The translations under genes and the position numbers were made by a program. Source: Octopus vulgaris (lineage: Eukaryota). From it: a stretch of 64,000 nt of DNA. A model generated the notes under the pieces. It searched no databases and was not told where the DNA came from. It saw only the letters and a program-made list of their open reading frames with translations. Shown in pieces: positions 14,199 through 61,729 of the stretch (positions are counted from its first letter, which is position 1; every line of letters starts with the position of its first letter). Where the stretch lies: NCBI GenBank assembly GCA_951406725.2, contig OX597818.1:18352001-18416000 (forward strand), read 5' to 3'.

Positions 14199-14765
14199 AG
14201 GCGGCGAGCTGGTACGCCGGACGAAATGCTTTGTGGTATTTCGTCCGCCGCTGCGTTCTGAGTTCAAATTTCGCCGAGGTCGACTTTACCTTTCATCCTT
14301 TCGGGGTCGATAAATTAAGTACCAGTGACGCACTAGGGTCGATGTAATCGACTTAATCTGTTTGTCTGTACTTGTCTATCCCCTCTATGTTTAGCCCCTT
14401 GTGGGTAGTAAAGAAATAGGTATTTCGTCTGCCGTTACGTTGTGAGTTCAAATTCCGCCGAGGTCCACTTTGCCTTTCATCATTTCAGGGTCAATTAAAT
14501 AAGTACCAGTTACGCACTGGGGTCGATATAATCGACTTAATCCGTTTGTCTGTCCTTGTTTGTCCTCTGAGTTTAGCCCTTTGTGGGTAGTAAAGAAATA
14601 GGTATTTCGTCTGGCGTTACGTTGTGAGTTCAAATTCTGCCGAGGTCAACTTTGCCTTTCTTCCTTTCGGGGTTGATAAATTAAATACCAGTTGCATACT
14701 GTGGTCGAACTAATCGACTGGCCCCCTCCCTCAAAATTTTGGGCCTTGTGCCATGAGTAGAAAAG
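14199..14765 (+). mobile_element. Trimeric tRNA-derived SINE (family S3) with 16-bp TSD
   Basis: One ggcggcgagctgg head plus three gagttcaaatt-y-cgccgaggtc units about 183 bp apart; TSD aataagaagacaacat at 14183-14198 and 14766-14781. Confidence 0.9.
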
Positions 14766-21885: not shown

Positions 21886-23903
21886 CATACACACATATAC
21901 AAATGCGTGAGTGTATATATATATTCACGCAAACACAACTTAAGAACGACATTTTATCGCGTTTTCATAATATACTAAATGGATTGTCTCTCTAGCTTTC
22001 TTGTTTCTTATTTCCTTTCATATTTTCTTTCTTTTTTCCCTCCTTTCTTTAACAATTAATTTCCTTCACTTCATGTCAATTTTAGGAGATAAAAATAAAA
22101 AATAAAAAATAAAATTAAAGATAAAATAAAATGTCTACATACACAATAAGCAAACAATACACCTGCAAACACACACACACACATACAATTGCACACCTAC
22201 ATATACATACAGGCTGAGATTCATAGCCGCTCCTGTACACTCCTACACGTTCGAAATATCATAGCAACAAACCGAAAACTAATTTGGAAACTGAAAAATA
22301 TATTCCATAATATAAAGTTTTTAATGTATTTACTTTTAAAATTAACGGTTAGGCGATGAATTAAAAGGATAAAGCGTAGAAGAAAATACAAAACAACAGA
22401 CAATTAAGAACAATTTAGAACGTAGAAAACATATTAGTCATTCAAATACGCATAAAAAATTATTAGCTTCATTTAAGCATTTTTTTTATTTGGTGTCAAA
22501 ATGTCTAAGCGAAGTTGAGATTTTGTGTGTTTTTAAATGTTTAATACGTATTTTCTTAGGTGGAATTGTTCATAATTATCTGTTGTGTCAGTGACCAGGT
22601 CGCGATTAGTGCGATGAAAAATTTTAATGCAAATAATAAATGTTTAAATGAAGTCAACAGATTTTGTTAGCTTTTGAATGCCTACTAATGTGTACCTTCG
22701 TCGCAGTAATTGTTTTACTATCACCGAATGGCCTCAGATCAAATCACTTGCCAATAAAGAACATCCTCCAAAAATAATTATGAAATTTCGTAATAACGAT
22801 GATGATAATAATAATAATAATGGTTTCAATTGTTGGCACAAGGCTAGCAATTTTGGGGGCAGGAATAAGTCGAATACATCGGCCTTAGTGCTCGACTGGC
22901 ACTTATTTTATCGATACCGAAAGGATGAAAGTTAAAGTCGACCTTGGCGGTATTGAACCTAGACCTAAAGACGAACGAAATGCTGCTAAGTATTTTAACT
23001 AGCGTGCTAACGCTTCTGCCAGCTCGCCGCTCAAATAATGATGATAATAATAATTATTTCTAATTTTTGCCATAAGGGCAGCTGGGGGGAGGTTGGCAAG
23101 ATATATAAAACATTCCATGAATAAGCGGCAGACGGTGCTACAGCTCCAGACAAAAGAGGGACTCATAAAACCCAAAGCCATCCCCATTAGAAGAGGAATA
23201 TTCCAAGGAGACACATTCTCTCCACTCCTTTTCTGCTTGGCACTGACACCTTTATCTGATATGCTAAACAGAACTGGATGTGGATAAAACTGTTACGGTA
23301 AAACAATCAGCCATCTCTTATATATGGATGATATAAAACTGTACGCTACAAATGTTAAACAGCTGGAAACATTACTACAGGCAGTACATGGATTTACCAA
23401 AGAAATAAATACGAAATTTGGCTTAGAAAAATGTGCCAAAGCAACCTTGAAAAGAGGAAAACTAGTTAATAGTAGCAACATTACACTAGATAAAGCAAAT
23501 GAAATGAGAGAATTAGACCAAAGCCAGACATACAAATACTTAGGAATCAATGAACCAGATACGATACAACAGACACAAATGAAAGAGAAGATGGGAAAAG
23601 AATGCTATAGACGAATTAGATTAATATTGAAAACAGAGCTCAAAGCGAAAAAATAAGATAATAGGTATCAATACTCTAGCCGCCCCAGTTATAAGTTACA
23701 GCTACAATATTCTTAACTGGTCTCTAAATTACCTAATCAGGGAAACAAGCAAAATAATGACAGGATTTAGGATGCACTATCCAAAATCTGATATAGAAAG
23801 GTTACACAATTCTATATTTAAGAAATGAGGAATTATGTATATTATTTACATTATTTACATTATTTAGATTTGACGGATATTTATCCTCATCTTGTTTGTT
23901 GTT

Positions 23904-23949
23904 AACACAACGTTTCGGTTTATATACCCTCCAGCCTTCATCAGGTGTT
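23904..23949 (-). ncRNA. Minimal type I hammerhead motif (stem II partly mutated)
   Basis: aacac CTGATGA a ggctg-gagggtatat-aaacc GAAAC GTT gtgtt. Confidence 0.7.
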
Positions 23950-23996
23950 TTGGGGAAATTTCGAACCTGGGTTCTCATTCCTAAGGTATTTTTCGA

Positions 23997-24032
<36 letters not shown>

Positions 24033-24135
24033 CATCATCATTATTATGATTATTATTCAGGTCACTGCTTGGAATCGAACTCGGAATCTTGGGGTTAGTA
24101 GCCCGCGCTCTTAACCACTACACCATATGCCAGTG

Positions 24136-24181
24136 GACACCTGATGAAGGCTGGAGAGAATATCAGCCGAAACGTTGTGTT
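24136..24181 (+). ncRNA. Minimal type I hammerhead ribozyme motif
   Basis: gacac CTGATGA a GGCTG-gagagaatat-CAGCC GAAAC GTT gtgtt; loop-less palindromic stem III (ACGT); predicted cut after 24176. Confidence 0.8.
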
Positions 24182-25081
24182 AACAACAAACAAGATGAGG
24201 ACAAATATCCGTCAAATGTAAATAATGTAAATAATGTATAGAAAGGTTATATTAATACAACGTATCGAAGGTGGTAGATGCCTTATCCAGCTAGAAAACC
24301 ATTACAAAATAGCCACCATATGTCTACAGCAAGGAAAACTAATACAAATAGGTATAAAACATGAACAAAACAAAATAAAAAGTGTTGCCAGTCTTTAAGG
24401 AAACTGACAAATATAAAAAAAAAGAAGTCATAGTACCTAACTACTATGAAGAAAAAGAAGAAACAACGAAAGCTGTAAAACAACTGAAACAGCAGAAGCT
24501 CCCACCAACGTTATATAGAATCTCAGCGTCTATTCAGGCAATTAATAATTACAAAAACAGTATTAATACCCAAAAGGTCATCTTCGTTTCCAACTTAACG
24601 TGGAGGTTGTATTTATGCTCCAAAATGATGTTTGTCCCCTAAAGTAAGATATGGTACTTATTTCTTTACTACCCACAAGGGGCTAAACACAGAGGGACAA
24701 ACAAGGACAGACAAATGGATTAAGTCGATTACATCGACCCTAGTGCGTAACTGGTACTTATTTAATCAACCCCGAAAGGATGAAAGGCAAAGTCGATCTC
24801 GGCGGAATTTGAACTCAGAATGTCGTGGCAGACGAAATACCGTTAGACATTTCGCCCGGCGTGCTAACGATTCTGCCAGCTCGCCTCGAAGCAAGATATG
24901 GTACCTCCTTAGGCCGGAAATACTCTCCAAATTAAAAGCTATTGGTGTCTTTGTTCTATGAAACTTATGTCTAAAGCCATCGAGCCACACTCGTCACATA
25001 AGAAAAAAGACGAAATATCAGCTGCAACTTAAGTAACAAACTTTTATGAAACGTTAACCACTTTATTATATCGTACAAAAA

Positions 25082-29402: not shown

Positions 29403-29442
29403 TAATAATAATAATGATAATAATAATAATAATAATTTACTG

Positions 29443-31578
29443 CAGTGATATCACAAAGGCTGAACAAGCACCTGGACGAAAACAAACTGTTCCCAGAAGA
29501 GCAGAAAGGATGCCGCAAAGGCTCATATGGCTGTAAAGATCAACTAATGATTAATAAAGCCATAACTGAAGACAGCCACAGAAAGAAGAAAGGCCTCAGT
29601 ATGGCCTGGATTGACTACAAAAAGGCGTTTGATAGCATCCCCCACACATGGATCCTCGAAACACTAGCCATTAACAAAGTAGCACCAACAATCATAAAAT
29701 TCATAGAGCACTCTATGAATAAATGGCAAACAGTCCTACACCTCCAAACAAAAGAGGGACTCATGAAAACCAAAGACATCCCCATTAAAAGAGGAATATT
29801 CCAGGGAGACACGCTCTCTCCACTCCTTTTCTGCTTGGCACTGTCACCTCTATCTGATATGCTAAATAGAACTGGATGCGGATATAAATGTTACGGCAAA
29901 ACGATCAGCCACCTTTTATATATGGATGACCTAAAACTATACGCTGCAAATGACAAACAGCTGGAAACACTATTAAAGACAGTTCATGGATTTACCAAAG
30001 AAATAGATATGAAATTTGGATTAGAAAAATGCGCCAAAGTAACCATGAAAAGAGGAAAACTAGTTAAGAGTAACAACATCACACTAGATAAAACCAATGA
30101 AATAAAAGAATTAGACCAAAGCCAAACTTACAAATACTTAGGAATCCATGAACTAGATAAGACACAACACACACAAATGAAAGAGAAAATAAAAAAAGAA
30201 TATTATAGACGAGTTAGATCAATACTAAACACAGAGCTCAATGCTAAAAACAAGATAATAGGTATCAACACTTTAGCTGTCCCAGTTATAAGTTACAGCT
30301 ACAATATCCTTAACTGGACACGAAATGAACTGACCAAAATAGATAGGAAAACAAGAAAAATAATGACAGGATCTAGGATGCATCACCCAAAATCTGACAT
30401 AGAAAGACTATATATACAACGTATAGAAGGTGGTAGAGGCCTTATACAGCTTGAAAGCTACTATAAAATAACCACCATAGGACTGCAAAAATATCTACTT
30501 CAGAAGGAAGGAAAACTGATCCAGATAGCGGCAAAACACGAGCAAAACAAAAAACTGTTCTCAGTATTTAAGGAAGCTGACAATTACAAACAAGAAATCA
30601 TACCACCTAATAAACATGAAGAAGAAGAAGAAGATGAAGAAACAACAAAAGCTATAAAACAAATGAAATCCAAACTAAAAACAGAACAGCAACGAACCAT
30701 GATAAAACGATGGCAAGAAAAGCCCCTTCATGGTAAATACTGGACTAAACTAAACGCAAAAGAAATAGACAAAGAAAAATCCCAGCAATGGTTGAGAAGC
30801 TCAGGACTCAAAGCAGAAACAGAGGGATTTTTAATTGCAGCACAAGACCAAAGCCTCCCCACCAGAAATTACCAAAAACATGTAATGAAAAGAAATATTA
30901 CAAGTAACTGCAGAATATGTGGAGATGGACAAGAAACAATAAATCATATTATCTCTAGCTGCCCAGTCCTGGCTAAGAAGGAATATATTCACAGACATGA
31001 CAGAGTTGGAACCTACATACATTGGAAGCTATGCCAACATTATGGAATAACAACAGAAAAAAGATGGTATAGGCACACACCAGAAAAGGTCACAGAAAAC
31101 GAGAAAGCAACCATACTCTGGGATATGCCGATACACACAGATAGAGAAATTAAGGCCAACAGACCAGATATAGTTGTCAGAGATCATGAAGGAAAAAAAT
31201 GCTTTTTAATTGATGTATCAATACCGGCAGATGACAACGTGTCTCTAAAAGAAATGGAGAAACTCTCAAAATACAAAGACCTGGAAATAGAGGTAACTAG
31301 AATGTGGAATCTGAAAACAGAAACAATTCCTATCATAGTAGGTGCATTAGGCATGATAAAAAAATATTCAGACAAATACATAACAAAAACACCAAGACTT
31401 ACAAACACATATAACATACAGAAAATTGCACTACTAGGCACTGCCCACATCCTACGCAGAACACTTTCCATACAATAACCATCAGAGCATCACAACAAAT
31501 CACAGCACATACCCAAGGCACACAGAGCTGCGCTCGGTAGTGAAGTGAAAGCACGCTATAAAAATAAAAATAAAACTA

Positions 31579-50980: not shown

Positions 50981-51557
50981 AGGCGGCGACCTGGCAGAAA
51001 CGTTAGCACGCCGGGCGAAATGCGTAGCTGTATTTCGTCTGCTGTTACGTTCTGAGTTCAAATTCCGCTGAGGTCGACTTATCCTTTCATCCTTTCGGGG
51101 TCGATAAATTAAGTACCAGTTACGCACTGGGGTCGATATAATCGACTTAATCCGTTTGTCTGTCCTTGTGTCTGTCTCTGTTTAGCCCCCTGTGGGTAGT
51201 AAAGAAATATGTATTCCGTCTGTCTTTATGCTGTGAGTTCAAATTCCGTCGAGATCGACTTTGCCTTTCATCCTTTCGGGGCCGATTAAATAAGCACCAG
51301 TTACTCACTGGGGTCGATCTAATCGACTTAATCCGTTTTTCTGTCCTTGTTTGTCCTCTCTGTGTGTAGCCCCTTGTGGGTAGTAAAGAAATAGGTATTT
51401 CGTCTGTCTTTATGCTGTGAGTTCAAATTCCGCCGAGGTCGACTTTGTCTTTTATCCTTTCGGGGTTGATAAATTAAGTACCATTTGCGTACTGCGGTCG
51501 ATCTAACCGACTGTACCCTCCCCCAAAATTTCGGGCCTTGTGCCTAGAGTAGAAAAG
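50981..51557 (+). mobile_element. Trimeric S3 SINE with 19-bp TSD
   Basis: Same architecture as 14199-14765; TSD aatattttccatgrtatta at 50962-50980 and 51558-51576 (1 mismatch). Confidence 0.9.
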
Positions 51558-54408: not shown

Positions 54409-56510
54409 GGTATGTATGTATGTATGTATGTATGTATGTATGTATGTATGTATGTATGTATGTATGTATGTATGTATGTATTCAAATACCTACGTCAGTA
54501 TATGTATGCATATAGTTTTAGTGGGCGCATGTCGGCGAAACGTGTAAATATCAATGAGAAAACTGATAAATTGTTGCTTTCGATCGAAACTACTTTGCGT
54601 AGTATTTGAAGTACCAAAATTGTACCGACACTCATTTCTCACACTTGATTTTGTAAATGTAGTGAACCACTGATTGATATGTTGAAAACTCGTAAACAAC
54701 GTCATATTCCCTTAGAATATGCGATATAAAATAAAAAGTGATAAAATAATGAAGAATCTTAAGGGTTGTAAATCAGGGAATAAAAATTTAGAACAAGTGT
54801 GTTTAGTACAGGAGTTGGAATAGAGGCGATGAACCATAGTAAGAGAGTAAATGAGGCGGGTGGTTTTCATGGGTATAGGGATGCATATATTTTAATCCAT
54901 TTGCTACATCAAAGAAATGAGAAGCATTAAAATGCGGTGTAAAAGATTGTGGGAAGATACGGTGTTTGGTGTGATGTTGTTGGCAAATGAACATCTGCTA
55001 ATCATGCAGGTGACCTAGTTTTTTGAATGCAATTTAGAACGTTGTTGAAATAATTGTTGTTGCTTAATTTAAGGCTAGCCTTGGTGAAGCAGACGAATGA
55101 TTAAAGGTGTTCCAACGTTCAGATTCCGTCATTTTGTATATCAAGGACTGTAGGCACATGACTCAGTGGTTAGATTATTGGGCTCACGATTGTAAGGTCG
55201 TGAGTTCGATTCCCGGGCTGAGAGGGGCGTAGTGTGCTTGAGTCAAGCACTTCATTTCACGTTGCCCCAGTTCACTCATTGTGTGTCACGCTGATGCACC
55301 CTGAGAACTACGTTAAGGGTACACGTGTCTGTGGAGTACTCAGCCCCTTGCACATTAATTCAAGGAGTAGTCTGTTCCGTTGATCGGATCAACTAGAATC
55401 CTTGATATAACTGGTATTTCGTAACCGGCGAAAAACCAGTTATATCAAGGACTACATTGTCCAGTGTGTCCACCTGTCTTATAAGAGAGGGAGAGAGAGG
55501 GAGGGAGAGGGAGAGAGAGGGTGAGAGAGAAGGAGAGAGAGGGAGGGAGAGGGAGAGAGAGGGAGGGAGAGGGAGAGGGAGAGAGAGGGTGAGAGAGAAG
55601 GAGAGAGAGGAAGGGAGAGGGAGAGAGAGAGGGGGAGAGATAGAGAACGAGTAGATGGGTAGAGAGGAGAGAGAGAGTGTGTGTATTTTGATTTTTAAAA
55701 AGTCGCTGTTATTTTTAACAGGTCGAATATTTGTGTAAGCGTGCATATGGCTGCGGCGGTGTTCCAGATATGTAAAGAGTAAGGTGGTATGGAGTTCACT
55801 TGGATGACTTGCATGCTAGGTTGAGTAGAAAGCGATCAGTGATGAAGCAGTTTGTAGCAATATAGAAAACGAGAAGAAGGACAGGCCAATGAGCGCCAGT
55901 TATGATAATATAAACAATAAATGGTTGTAGCATTTTATTGAGCTAATGAGAGTTGTAGCATTTTATTGAGCTAATGAGAAATTGTGAAACCTCGCATTTT
56001 ACTGAGTTCGTCAGAAAGTATGAGGCGGACACAAATACGCAAACACACACGCACGCGCGCACACACACACAGACACACAGGCATAAAGACAAACACAAAC
56101 ACACGTATTTATTATAATCACAATATACGCGCGCAAACACGCACACACACACGTATTATAATCACAATACAGATTTCTTTATGCCGTTCTTTATGCCAAA
56201 ATTTAAAATCACTATTATTATTAAAATGAGGACAGCAAGTTGGAGGAATTATTAACAAGCTGGGCAAAATACTTAGCGCCAATTCTTCCGTCTTTTCGTT
56301 CTGAGTTCAAATGTCACCGAGTTGATTTTGCCTTTCTTCCTTTCGGGGTCGATAAAATAAGTACCAGTTGAGTACTGGAGTCGATATAATCGATTTATAC
56401 CCTCCCCGAATTAACTAGCCTTGTGCCAAAATTTGAAATCATTATTATTATTATTAAGTTTACTACGATGATTTGTAGTTTTACTGTATGCTTATATACA
56501 AATATATATA

Positions 56511-56816
56511 CACATGCATGAGTACAGAACCTCACCAACGGTGCAAAAACCATGAAGTACGTTAACAAACGAGGGCGGGAGAAACGAGTGAAATACGTAA
56601 AGAACGAAAAAACAGGACAAGTTAACACGGAGAAAGGACCCGTCAGCAGTTTTGACGTTGAATGCTCGAAATAAGGAGTAGATAGACAATCGACAACTGA
56701 TGAAAAGTCCTTTCCTTGTGTTAACTTTTCCTGCTTTCCGTTTTTTCCTCGTTGTTTACTTATTTCACATTATTTGCCCCCGTTGGTGACATCCTGTACC
56801 CATATGTGCATGTGCA
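56511..56816. mobile_element. Head-to-head pair of a (TA)n-associated repeat (family A)
   Basis: 56511-56640 is an imperfect reverse complement of 56706-56816; further copies at about 57945-58180(-) and 58233-58865(+). Confidence 0.7.
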
Positions 56817-56947
56817 TATATATATATGATGGGATCCACTACCTCAAATGTTCTTAAAATTTAAGTCCACATCTTCGTCTATGTAACTACCTTCACTATA
56901 ATGTTGACAATTGATATGAAAATTTTTGTATTAATGGAAAACCTCTA

Positions 56948-57036
56948 TAATTGGCTGATGAGTGCTCAGCATTTTAAAACTGTTGTAATACAACATTTAA
57001 TAAAATGATGTAGTACGAAACGATCGTACCAAATTA
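56948..57036 (+). ncRNA. Type I hammerhead ribozyme, copy 1
   Basis: taattgg CTGATGA gtgct [catttta/taaaatg, tgttgt/acaaca extension] agtac GAAAC gatc GTA ccaaatta; canonical core; palindromic stem III ACGATCGT; predicted cut after 57028. Confidence 0.88.
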
Positions 57037-57099
57037 CCGGAGTCATTCTTGTTGCTTATTTTGATTATATATATATATGTGTGTGTGTTGTGTGTTGTG

Positions 57100-57138
<39 letters not shown>

Positions 57139-57243
57139 ATATATTATTTATTACTTCATTGAACGCGACGCATCCATTTCCAAGTATGTTTATATAAACT
57201 TACTTGGAAATGGATGCGTGAATAATATATATATACATACATA

Positions 57244-57305
<62 letters not shown>

Positions 57306-57587
57306 TACATAGGTACAGGACGTCACCAACAGTAAACAACATGAAATACGAAAACAAATGTTAACTTTTCCTGCTTTCCGTTTTTTCCTCGTTGTTTACT
57401 TATTTCACATTATTTGCCCCCGTTGGTGACATCCTGTACCCATATGTGCATGTGCATATATATATATGATGGGATCCACTACCTCAAATGTTCTTAAAAT
57501 TTAAGTCCACATCTTCGTCTATGTATCTACCTTCACTATAATGTTGACAATTGATATGAAAATGTTTGTATTAATGGAAAACCTCTA

Positions 57588-57676
57588 TAATTGGCTGATG
57601 AGTGCTCAGCATTTTAAAACTGTTGTAATACAACATTTAATAAAATGATGTAGTACGAAACGATCGTACCAAATTA
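57588..57676 (+). ncRNA. Type I hammerhead ribozyme, copy 2
   Basis: Identical to 56948-57036 shifted by 640; predicted cut after 57668. Confidence 0.88.
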
Positions 57677-57739
57677 CCGGAGTCATTCTTGTTGCTTATT
57701 TTGATTATATATATATATGTGTGTGTGTTGTGTGTTGTG

Positions 57740-57780
<41 letters not shown>

Positions 57781-57885
57781 ATATATTATTTATTACTTCA
57801 TTGAACGCGACGCATCCATTTCCAAGTATGTTTATATAAACTTACTTGGAAATGGATGCGTGAATAATATATATATACATACATA

Positions 57886-57947
<62 letters not shown>

Positions 57948-58858
57948 TACATAGGTACAGGACGTCACCAACAGTAAACAACATGAAATACGAAAACAAA
58001 TGAGTTCAGCACACAAACAACGAGAGAAACAAAATGGAAAACAGAACAAGTAATATAAAGAACTATCCTTCATCAGTTGTCGGCTCTTTATCTACACCTC
58101 ATTTCGAGCATTGAACGACAATATGACTTTTTCAAGGCAGTTGCTCCCATAAGTACCAAAATAAATTTACCCATGTATGCATATATATATATATATATAC
58201 ATACACATATATATGTATATATATATATATATCATTTATATTATTATTTGATTGAACGCCACGCTTTCATTTCCACGTAAGTTTATCTTAATCTTTTTGA
58301 TGCGTCTCTACTCTATACTGTTTTCTCCCTTTATCGTTTTCTCTCTTATTCTTTCTCTCCTTCACTGTTTTCTATCTGTCTCACTCTCCCCCCTGCTCCT
58401 TCACTCTCTCTCGTTGCTCACACGTGACCATCGTCCCTCTTTCTTTTCTTCACGTGATCATCTTTCTTTTTTCTCAAGGCTGTCATAAAGATTAGACGTG
58501 TCCTGTCTCTCTCCTCTACATTTTCTCTCGTCAAAGAAAATATTTCTCTACCGTTCGCTATTTTACCCTCGTTCGGGTCTAATGAGCCTCCTTGTTTGTT
58601 GTCGTTCAGTTTCCCTGTATGTCTCCACTGCCCTGTTTTTGTTCCCAAATTTGACCATCCATAAATCCAAAATTTTATTTTGGTACTTATGGGAGCAACT
58701 GTCGTTCAATACTCTAAATGAGGAGTAGATAGACAGCCAACAACTGATGAAGGGTCGTTCTTTGTGTTACATGTCCTGTTTTCCATTTGTTGCGTATTGA
58801 ATGCATTGATTTTCGTATTTCAAGTTGTTTAATGTTGGGGACGTCATGTACCCATATA

Positions 58859-58926
<68 letters not shown>

Positions 58927-59601
58927 AGTAATAAGAGAAAGACCATATGTGGTCTTTCTCTTATTACTTGTATTAATAATTTTTACTGTATCTCAGTTTT
59001 TTTACGCTAGGCCACTTGGTGTTTTAAATTGATGTTAGTAATTAATATTCAAGTTTTTCACCCTTATTGTGATTTTAATTATATATATATATATATATAT
59101 AGGTGTGTGTGTGTATGTTTGTATATACATCTATATTAATATATATGCGCATATATGTATAGATAGATAGCATGTATATACGCGTGTAGGAATCAATATC
59201 TATATATGCATATGTAAAATTTATGCGCATACACTTACACGCTCAAACATATATATGTGTATGTGTATATATGTATTTAGTGATAACTCTCTATTGCTTA
59301 ATAACATATGTATTATTTAACATATGGCTTAATGTTTCATTTCATAAATCGTTTCTACTTCACCGGAAATAATTTTTCGTTTGTGAAACATTTTGTTATA
59401 CATTATTTCTTCTCATATTAACATTCTCTGTGACGGAATGATTACATTCCTTCAGAATATTGCAATCCTTTTGTCTTTGATGATGATGCAAGTCTTCCTG
59501 TAATGTCTAACTAATGCACTAATGCTGTATATATTGATCCCATTTATATATGTATATGTGAACATATATATATACGTGTGTGTGTGTGTGCGTGCGTGTG
59601 A

Positions 59602-60962: not shown

Positions 60963-61729
60963 GTACCGAAGTACATGTAGAAAGATATTCAGGTTATGTA
61001 TACGATTATCTGTATATCACGAGACCTGAATCTAATCAAGAGACGCACATTGCACTAAATGCACGGTCCATAATATACTTCGGATCCAGACAAGATGCTG
61101 GTTCCGACGTAGGTGAATAATAAATAAAGAAATAACAACAGATGGATAATGAGCTATTTCGAACGAAATTAAATCAATAGGATAAAACCGTTTTCATCAG
61201 CTGAATACATGAATCACAACCTTCAAAAACTTTCAGAAGCCAACGGTTTGTGCCACTTCATGATGATATGACCAGTATCCGTCACAAGAATGTTTTGAAT
61301 GTCGTGATTTATTCCTTCACCTGAATAAAACGATTTTTCGTAATAAGTAATTTCTTCGTTAATCAATTAAAACTCGTTGTATATAGCTGTAGTGGATTGA
61401 CATATTATCCATCTGTTTTTATTATATACATACGTACACACACAAACACACTCTCACACACACACACACATACACACTTAGACACACACGCACACATATA
61501 TATGTTGTGTTTTGGTGATCAAAATGAGGGTTTTGACTCTCATTTCTAGCGGATAGATACGTTAATGTGTCCTTATGAGTAATATAATTTTAATTCTATA
61601 GCTATATAATGCTTATTTGGGCCTGCAACTACCTATATTAATATTGTTTGTTATTATGAACTATTTGTATTGCCTTCGATAATAATAACTAATATCTATA
61701 TAAATAGTCGCTTCCGAATATTCCTGCTG

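Follow-up and report, generated by a model that had tools for sequence, protein, structure and literature searches.

Metazoan non-LTR retrozymes have monomers of 150–450 nt with a GC content below 50%, and their type I hammerheads carry a short palindromic helix III (PMC7229834). In the same source, axolotl dimers cleave better than monomers, and invertebrate ribozymes with such a helix III are able to cut as monomers too. Retrozyme units of 51–972 nt were reported by Li 2026 (10.64898/2026.07.22.740005), where the local amplification of the ends of Penelope-like elements (PLEs) is also described. (TA)n is a known PLE target (Craig 2021), and dispersed single hammerheads derived from truncated PLEs have been described (PMC4209133). 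Octopus vulgaris has 31 recently active Penelope-like families (PMC13282606), and 235 hammerhead-1 loci are given for the giant squid (PMC6962438).

The locus compared with these systems lies in a window of 64,000 nt from Octopus vulgaris (contig OX597818.1), which is the whole stretch that was analysed. The window is AT-rich and rich in microsatellites, with 105 rows in the TRF output; three of its ORFs match RVT_1, and a SINE-like repeat is scattered through it in many copies. The same repeat forms tandem arrays of 2.6–2.7 copies with a period of 182–184 at 14235–14719 and 51030–51512. Directly after an (AAT)49 tract, an uninterrupted LINE ORF of 680 aa was observed at 29436–31475 (RVT_1, zf-RVT). 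Its best relatives are 56% identical, the named matches among the 120 listed coming from a coral, shrimps, insects and a fish; it resembles an R4/Dong-type element.

Judged by sequence and pairing, the locus carries two real type I hammerheads on the plus strand, identical to each other, at 56948–57036 and 57588–57676, with predicted cuts after 57028 and 57668, respectively. In hammerhead 1, CUGAUGA occupies 56955–56961 and GAAA 57017–57020. Stem I pairs 56948–56954 with 57029–57036 (7 bp, one bulged A), and stem II extends over 55 nt (56962–57016), closed by G10.1–C11.1. The palindrome ACGAUCGU is found at 57020–57027, with GUA as the triplet at the predicted cut, and helix III of both hammerheads consists of 2 bp plus a palindromic tetraloop. 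All type I elements (CUGANGA, GAAA, UH, G10.1–C11.1 and stems I–III) are present in both. A type I descriptor with pairing checks recognized three sites in the window (24141, 56955 and 57595, all plus strand) and none in 100 out of 100 block-wise dinucleotide-shuffled windows; therefore, the hammerhead motif is real.

The first-pass annotation had described each copy as a fully canonical type I hammerhead with a palindromic stem III and an extended stem II of about 55 nt. The type, the palindrome and the length of stem II are borne out by the descriptor and the pairing anatomy, and the core is indeed canonical. The periphery is not: instead of the canonical stem II of ~4 bp with a loop I–loop II tertiary contact, there is an extended 55-nt hairpin without a short loop at the usual distance for that contact. 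Rfam gave no match in the whole window at the gathering threshold and, at E up to 10, no hammerhead among the 55 matches in 56000–59000, nearly all of which were miRNA models on microsatellites and hairpins.

Other hammerhead-like sites were observed in the window. Two minimal Penelope-type cores lie on opposite strands within 23847–24238 (23944 minus, 24141 plus), with an extra A after position 9 and the palindrome AACGUU; only the plus copy passes the descriptor. They are located in 102-nt inverted arms that are 94% identical and enclose a (TTA)n tract, and the pair lies inside a decayed LINE copy, its right part matching 30399–30668. Pairs of minimal hammerheads on opposite strands, as reported in PMC4209133, have this same arrangement. 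At about 1780–1880 on the minus strand (core 1873), a degenerate type I hammerhead-like motif has a long stem II region, a GUA triplet and a pairable stem I; it fails the descriptor and is dissimilar to the element at 56955. Core words without a stem I partner at 61200 (minus) are probably decayed or due to chance. Alignments of the hammerhead element with the other hammerhead-like sites in the window scored 25–28, within the shuffle range.

The two hammerheads belong to a two-copy tandem at 56719–58002 with a period of 640 and 2.0 copies (TRF, period ≤1000). Pairwise alignment of unit 1 (56719–57360, plus; 640 nt and a shared 2-nt TG) with unit 2 (57359–58002, plus) gave 99.2% identity, which together with the TRF period confirms the claim of a tandem of identical hammerheads 640 nt apart. 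The units differ by three substitutions (56886/57526, 56924/57564 and 57101/57741) and by the TG tract, which is 32 nt in unit 1 and, with one TG more, 34 nt in unit 2. Both (TA)n tracts measure 54 nt, and the ribozyme regions (56940–57065 and its +640 counterpart) are letter-identical.

Each unit is a mosaic. It begins with the 3′ part of a plus-strand copy of a dispersed repeat, family A, ending in (AT)6, followed by the hammerhead element (56828–57065 in unit 1), a TA/TG microsatellite (57066–57134, with a copy at 57706–57776), a near-perfect 52-nt hairpin (57168–57219, with a copy at 57810–57861), the 54-nt (TA)n tract and a minus-strand family-A part. This anatomy bears out the earlier remark that the unit contains family-A pieces and microsatellites. 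Dinucleotide tracts account for 138 of the 640 nt, and the GC content of the unit is 30%. The 5′ arm of the hairpin with its preceding bases (57148–57198) matches 58241–58291 at 82%. A second, unrelated near-perfect 52-nt hairpin lies at 58922–58973; both adjoin (TA)n, have −35 kcal/mol each and are possibly fold-back footprints of insertions.

Both outer ends of the duplication cut family-A copies. The plus-strand copy at 56653–56827 is interrupted by the left end at 56719, and the minus-strand copy at 57883–58168 by the right end at 58002, while unit 1 ends in a truncated minus-strand copy with its (TA)n tract (57241–57360). An intact plus-strand copy outside the duplication, at 58671–58923, was used as the alignment reference. 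At the left end, the outside part aligns to 58700–58764 and the inside part to 58765–58863, adjacent in one family-A copy, with scores of 77 and 68 against shuffle maxima of 28 and 33 (200 shuffles). At the right end, the outside part aligns to 58671–58791 and the inside part to 58804–58861, with scores of 162 and 84 against maxima of 40 and 38 (200 shuffles). At both ends, the outside and inside parts thus belong to neighbouring stretches of one family-A copy; the junction interrupts family A, and deleting one unit restores two uninterrupted family-A repeats.

At the junction itself (57359–57360), a truncated family-A copy on the minus strand is joined to another, likewise truncated, on the plus strand through a 2-nt TG microhomology; the nearer upstream cut site is 332 nt away. 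Contigs exiting at 57360 go on with the family-A sequence that follows 58002 in the window (87, 71 and 70 in three DNA runs). None of the contigs listed bridges the junction at 57360, contigs showing presence only, and none of the four contig joints listed goes back within the ribozyme piece. A target-site duplication, an optional feature of non-LTR retrozymes that measures >4 bp when present, was not found at the unit ends; the flanks have at most a 5-nt word in common, and not at the boundaries. Family A has many copies in the contigs and forms inverted pairs around the locus, with (TA)n tracts on their outer sides (56490–56827 and 57883–58923), a layout that resembles Penelope-type inverted truncated insertions. 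Inspected by eye as a possible permuted hammerhead, family A was rejected, since neither a stem III nor a cut triplet is found where one would be expected.

The hammerhead element measures about 238 nt and is found on the plus strand at 56828–57065 (copy 1, between (AT)6 and (TA)6(TG)n) and 57468–57705 (copy 2). Its boundaries were taken from the flanking microsatellites and from contigs aligned to copy 2. The contig comparison covered 57303–57705 (403 nt) in four of the 24 runs listed, namely three DNA runs with two organism labels from three studies, plus run X13; run X1 may be the source of the assembly itself. The three DNA runs yielded 1851, 2620 and 1658 matching contigs, counts that include family A, with dense coverage only over 57471–57705 and the family-A end. 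Summed contig depth, which is not copy number, reached 2.2 × 10^5–5.7 × 10^5 over the ribozyme part versus 55–424 in bins 57373–57442. Copy 2 has many variant contigs in all three runs, and the hammerhead family is present as very many variant copies in public DNA contigs.

Comparison with this family separates what the two copies share from what is private to each. At 57505, 57516, 57535, 57547 and 57550, 71–100% of the contig depth is another letter, whereas both window copies agree. These five common letters point to the descent of both copies from a single insertion, already about 2% diverged by the time it was duplicated. In addition, one letter is private to each copy: that of copy 2 is at 57564, where the family agrees with copy 1, and that of copy 1 at 56886, where the family agrees with copy 2, the contigs listing no alternative letter at 57526. 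The element divides roughly equally into a part upstream of the ribozyme, which holds all five common departures, and the ribozyme part, which holds none (two-sided p about 0.06); this spread weakly fits ribozyme conservation.

Among the family variants, C-to-T and G-to-A changes affect the three CpG sites of the core, the apical loop of stem II can be 4 nt longer, and two changes preserve stem II pairs (57604 and 57655). Unlinked loose-end consensuses in two runs hint at a subfamily whose stem II base differs but can still pair. From run X13, which is only presumed to be RNA, 48 contigs were obtained, with the family letters wherever they cover the five positions above; their coverage is thin in bins 57359–57372 and absent in 57373–57442, and says nothing either way on transcription of the locus. 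Pattern scans for relatives found none in viral contigs and none in metagenomes; three further matches, located within bacterial-type reading frames and dissimilar to the window, were dropped as chance. In the main texts searched, no description of a family with a stem II of 55–59 nt was found. With its intact core and unusually long stem II, the family escapes Rfam and is a candidate addition to hammerhead models.

The 238-nt piece is probably the 5′-truncated 3′ end of a Penelope-like element, an assignment that rests on layout, with no linked ORF found. The cut site lies 37 nt before the 3′ (TA)n, i.e., the hammerhead is near the end of the element, which is preceded by (AT)6 and followed by (TA)6. 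Four contigs of X13 exit into TA-rich sequence at 57702–57704. Upstream, three contigs have other sequence before 57487 and one extends 21 nt beyond 57471, 57441–57470 being masked. A hammerhead close to the 3′ end, (TA)n on both sides, many dispersed variants and these upstream hints fit a truncated PLE 3′ end (PMC4209133; Craig 2021; Frangieh 2024). Within the window, no PLE ORF or motif (RT, GIY-YIG) was found by motif search or by Pfam on 10 chosen ORFs. That the piece is instead a remnant of a retrozyme family is unlikely, and is entertained because its helix III is of the canonical, retrozyme type and not the minimal PLE form.

The two copies had also been proposed to form a dimeric active fold in one transcript and to release a 640-nt RNA. 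In a 106-nt fragment, stems I and II are predicted to pair with probabilities up to about 0.9; of the four core pairs of stem I, the outermost two reach 0.65 and 0.36. When the unit or the dimer is folded, the values for both stems fall to 0.04–0.3. For the transcript 56940–57690, the nested double-hammerhead fold has −225.8 kcal/mol, compared with −213.5 for two monomers and −227.4 for the unconstrained minimum; it thus lies 12 kcal/mol below the two monomeric folds and 1.6 kcal/mol above the minimum, with a probability of 0.16 for the 8-bp palindromic helix. By this prediction the dimeric fold is feasible and the proposed mechanism physically plausible, and a plus-strand transcript through both units is predicted to be able to fold as a double hammerhead and release 57029–57668 as a by-product.

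The same energetic advantage is not peculiar to the locus. A gain of 10–12 kcal/mol over the monomers was also obtained in 8 out of 8 shuffled spacers; therefore, it is a property of the ribozyme and does not indicate selection on the locus. Since the gain is intrinsic to the palindrome, any duplication of such a ribozyme would confer it. The native spacer places the double fold nearer to the minimum than all eight controls (1.6 versus 2.0–7.3 kcal/mol), which in this small sample argues slightly for function. Li 2026 observed cleavage in only one out of nine predicted dimers tested.

We consider it moderately likely that the locus arose by a recent, local, in-place DNA duplication of a 640-base patchwork of repeats including one common hammerhead-bearing element. 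Family-A copies and the 238-nt hammerhead fragment would have inserted beside (TA)n, presumably via target-primed reverse transcription, and the hammerhead copy would then have acquired about five private substitutions. Slippage or repair at the 2-nt TG microhomology would subsequently have duplicated the stretch between two family-A copies, and the few inter-unit differences would have arisen last. The first-pass annotation had offered an ordinary local duplication with an accidental dimer only as a caveat, and this caveat is the better reading, given that the ends cut family A and no target-site duplication is present. Its main proposal, a retrozyme-like monomer of 640 nt, conflicts with these ends and with the five letters common to the copies and absent from the family. 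Accidental pairs are to be expected where, as in repeat-rich animal genomes, hammerheads occur by the thousand. An assembly artefact, in which a chimeric read or merged haplotypes made a tandem from a single genomic copy, is unlikely but carries appreciable weight. The 99.2% identity between units is consistent with it, as are the inverted family-A copies, hairpins and microsatellites all around and the identical 54-nt (TA)n tracts, although the latter fit a very young event equally. Against an artefact, each copy has its own private letter relative to the family, the TG tracts differ by one unit, and the junction is a clean 2-nt microhomology of the kind typical of real duplications. The private letters and the clean junction favour a real, recent event. 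The substitutions as such, which had been taken to argue against an assembly duplicate, are a weak argument, since haplotype merging or consensus errors could yield them.

Two further readings would tie the locus to retrozyme biology. It is improbable that the duplication, accidental but real and transcribed, already acts as a nascent retrozyme, with two cuts giving a 640-nt RNA that is circularised and could seed new copies. The intact and identical cores, the double-fold energy (−225.8 versus −213.5 kcal/mol) with its palindromic helix probability of 0.16, the better cleavage of axolotl dimers (PMC7229834) and the proposal of such an origin route by Li 2026 would suit it. However, the energy gain comes with the palindrome (8 out of 8 shuffled spacers), competing pairings mostly displace stems I and II in the folded unit, 138 of the 640 nt are microsatellite, and only one of the nine dimers mentioned above cleaved. 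Even less probable is a bona fide non-LTR retrozyme dimer, in which reverse transcription ran more than once around a 640-nt circular RNA and the product was inserted at the locus. Such an insertion would be expected between unrelated flanks, so the cut family-A ends speak against it: the flanks continue the repeats that the unit ends interrupt, a pattern not expected of a copy landing at a new site, and this reading is thereby largely refuted. The unit is thus not a mobile block of its own, as both of its ends cut family-A copies. The missing target-site duplication points the same way, as does the restriction of the ribozyme family to 238 nt of the unit, despite the complete type I hammerhead in each of the two tandem units, a GC content of 30% and agreement with the operational rule of Li 2026. 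The length of 640 nt exceeds the 150–450 nt of PMC7229834, yet falls within the 51–972 nt of Li 2026.

Under the rule of Li 2026 (TRF period up to 1000 and two consecutive complete hammerheads), the locus would count as a retrozyme. It therefore passes a published "active retrozyme" filter though its unit ends cut older repeats, and as such is a cautionary case; comparing breakpoints with the adjoining repeats would be a cheap filter for retrozyme catalogues. From its sequence, the locus reads as a false positive of that rule or as a dead-end first step, at best a snapshot of retrozyme birth. If it were a nascent retrozyme, a chance pairing of two Penelope-type hammerheads that work best as a dimer, it would provide direct evidence for the proposed route from PLE ends to non-LTR retrozymes, and a new circularised 640-nt RNA made largely of unrelated flanking repeats. 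If it yields circles, the PLE-to-retrozyme origin model would become testable on a single allele pair (one versus two copies).

Compared with the metazoan non-LTR retrozymes of PMC7229834, the locus shares the type I hammerhead, the short palindromic helix III, the tandem units and the low GC content, and it resembles the mussel ribozymes of the same source in lacking most loop–loop contact nucleotides. It differs in its stem II (55 nt versus about 4 bp), in its unit, a 640-nt mosaic ending in other repeats and known as a unit from this locus only, in having no target-site duplication and in being known from DNA alone. The retrozymes described as locally amplified PLE ends in Li 2026 are closer in one respect, as the locus fits the proposed first step, a local duplication of a PLE end; however, those families are pLTR-homologous, whereas most of the unit here is unrelated flanking repeat. 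With the PLE pLTR hammerheads, as described in PMC4209133 and Craig 2021, the element has in common very many dispersed variants, a larger-than-usual helix II, a palindromic helix III in need of a partner, (TA)n flanks and an apparent 5′ truncation.
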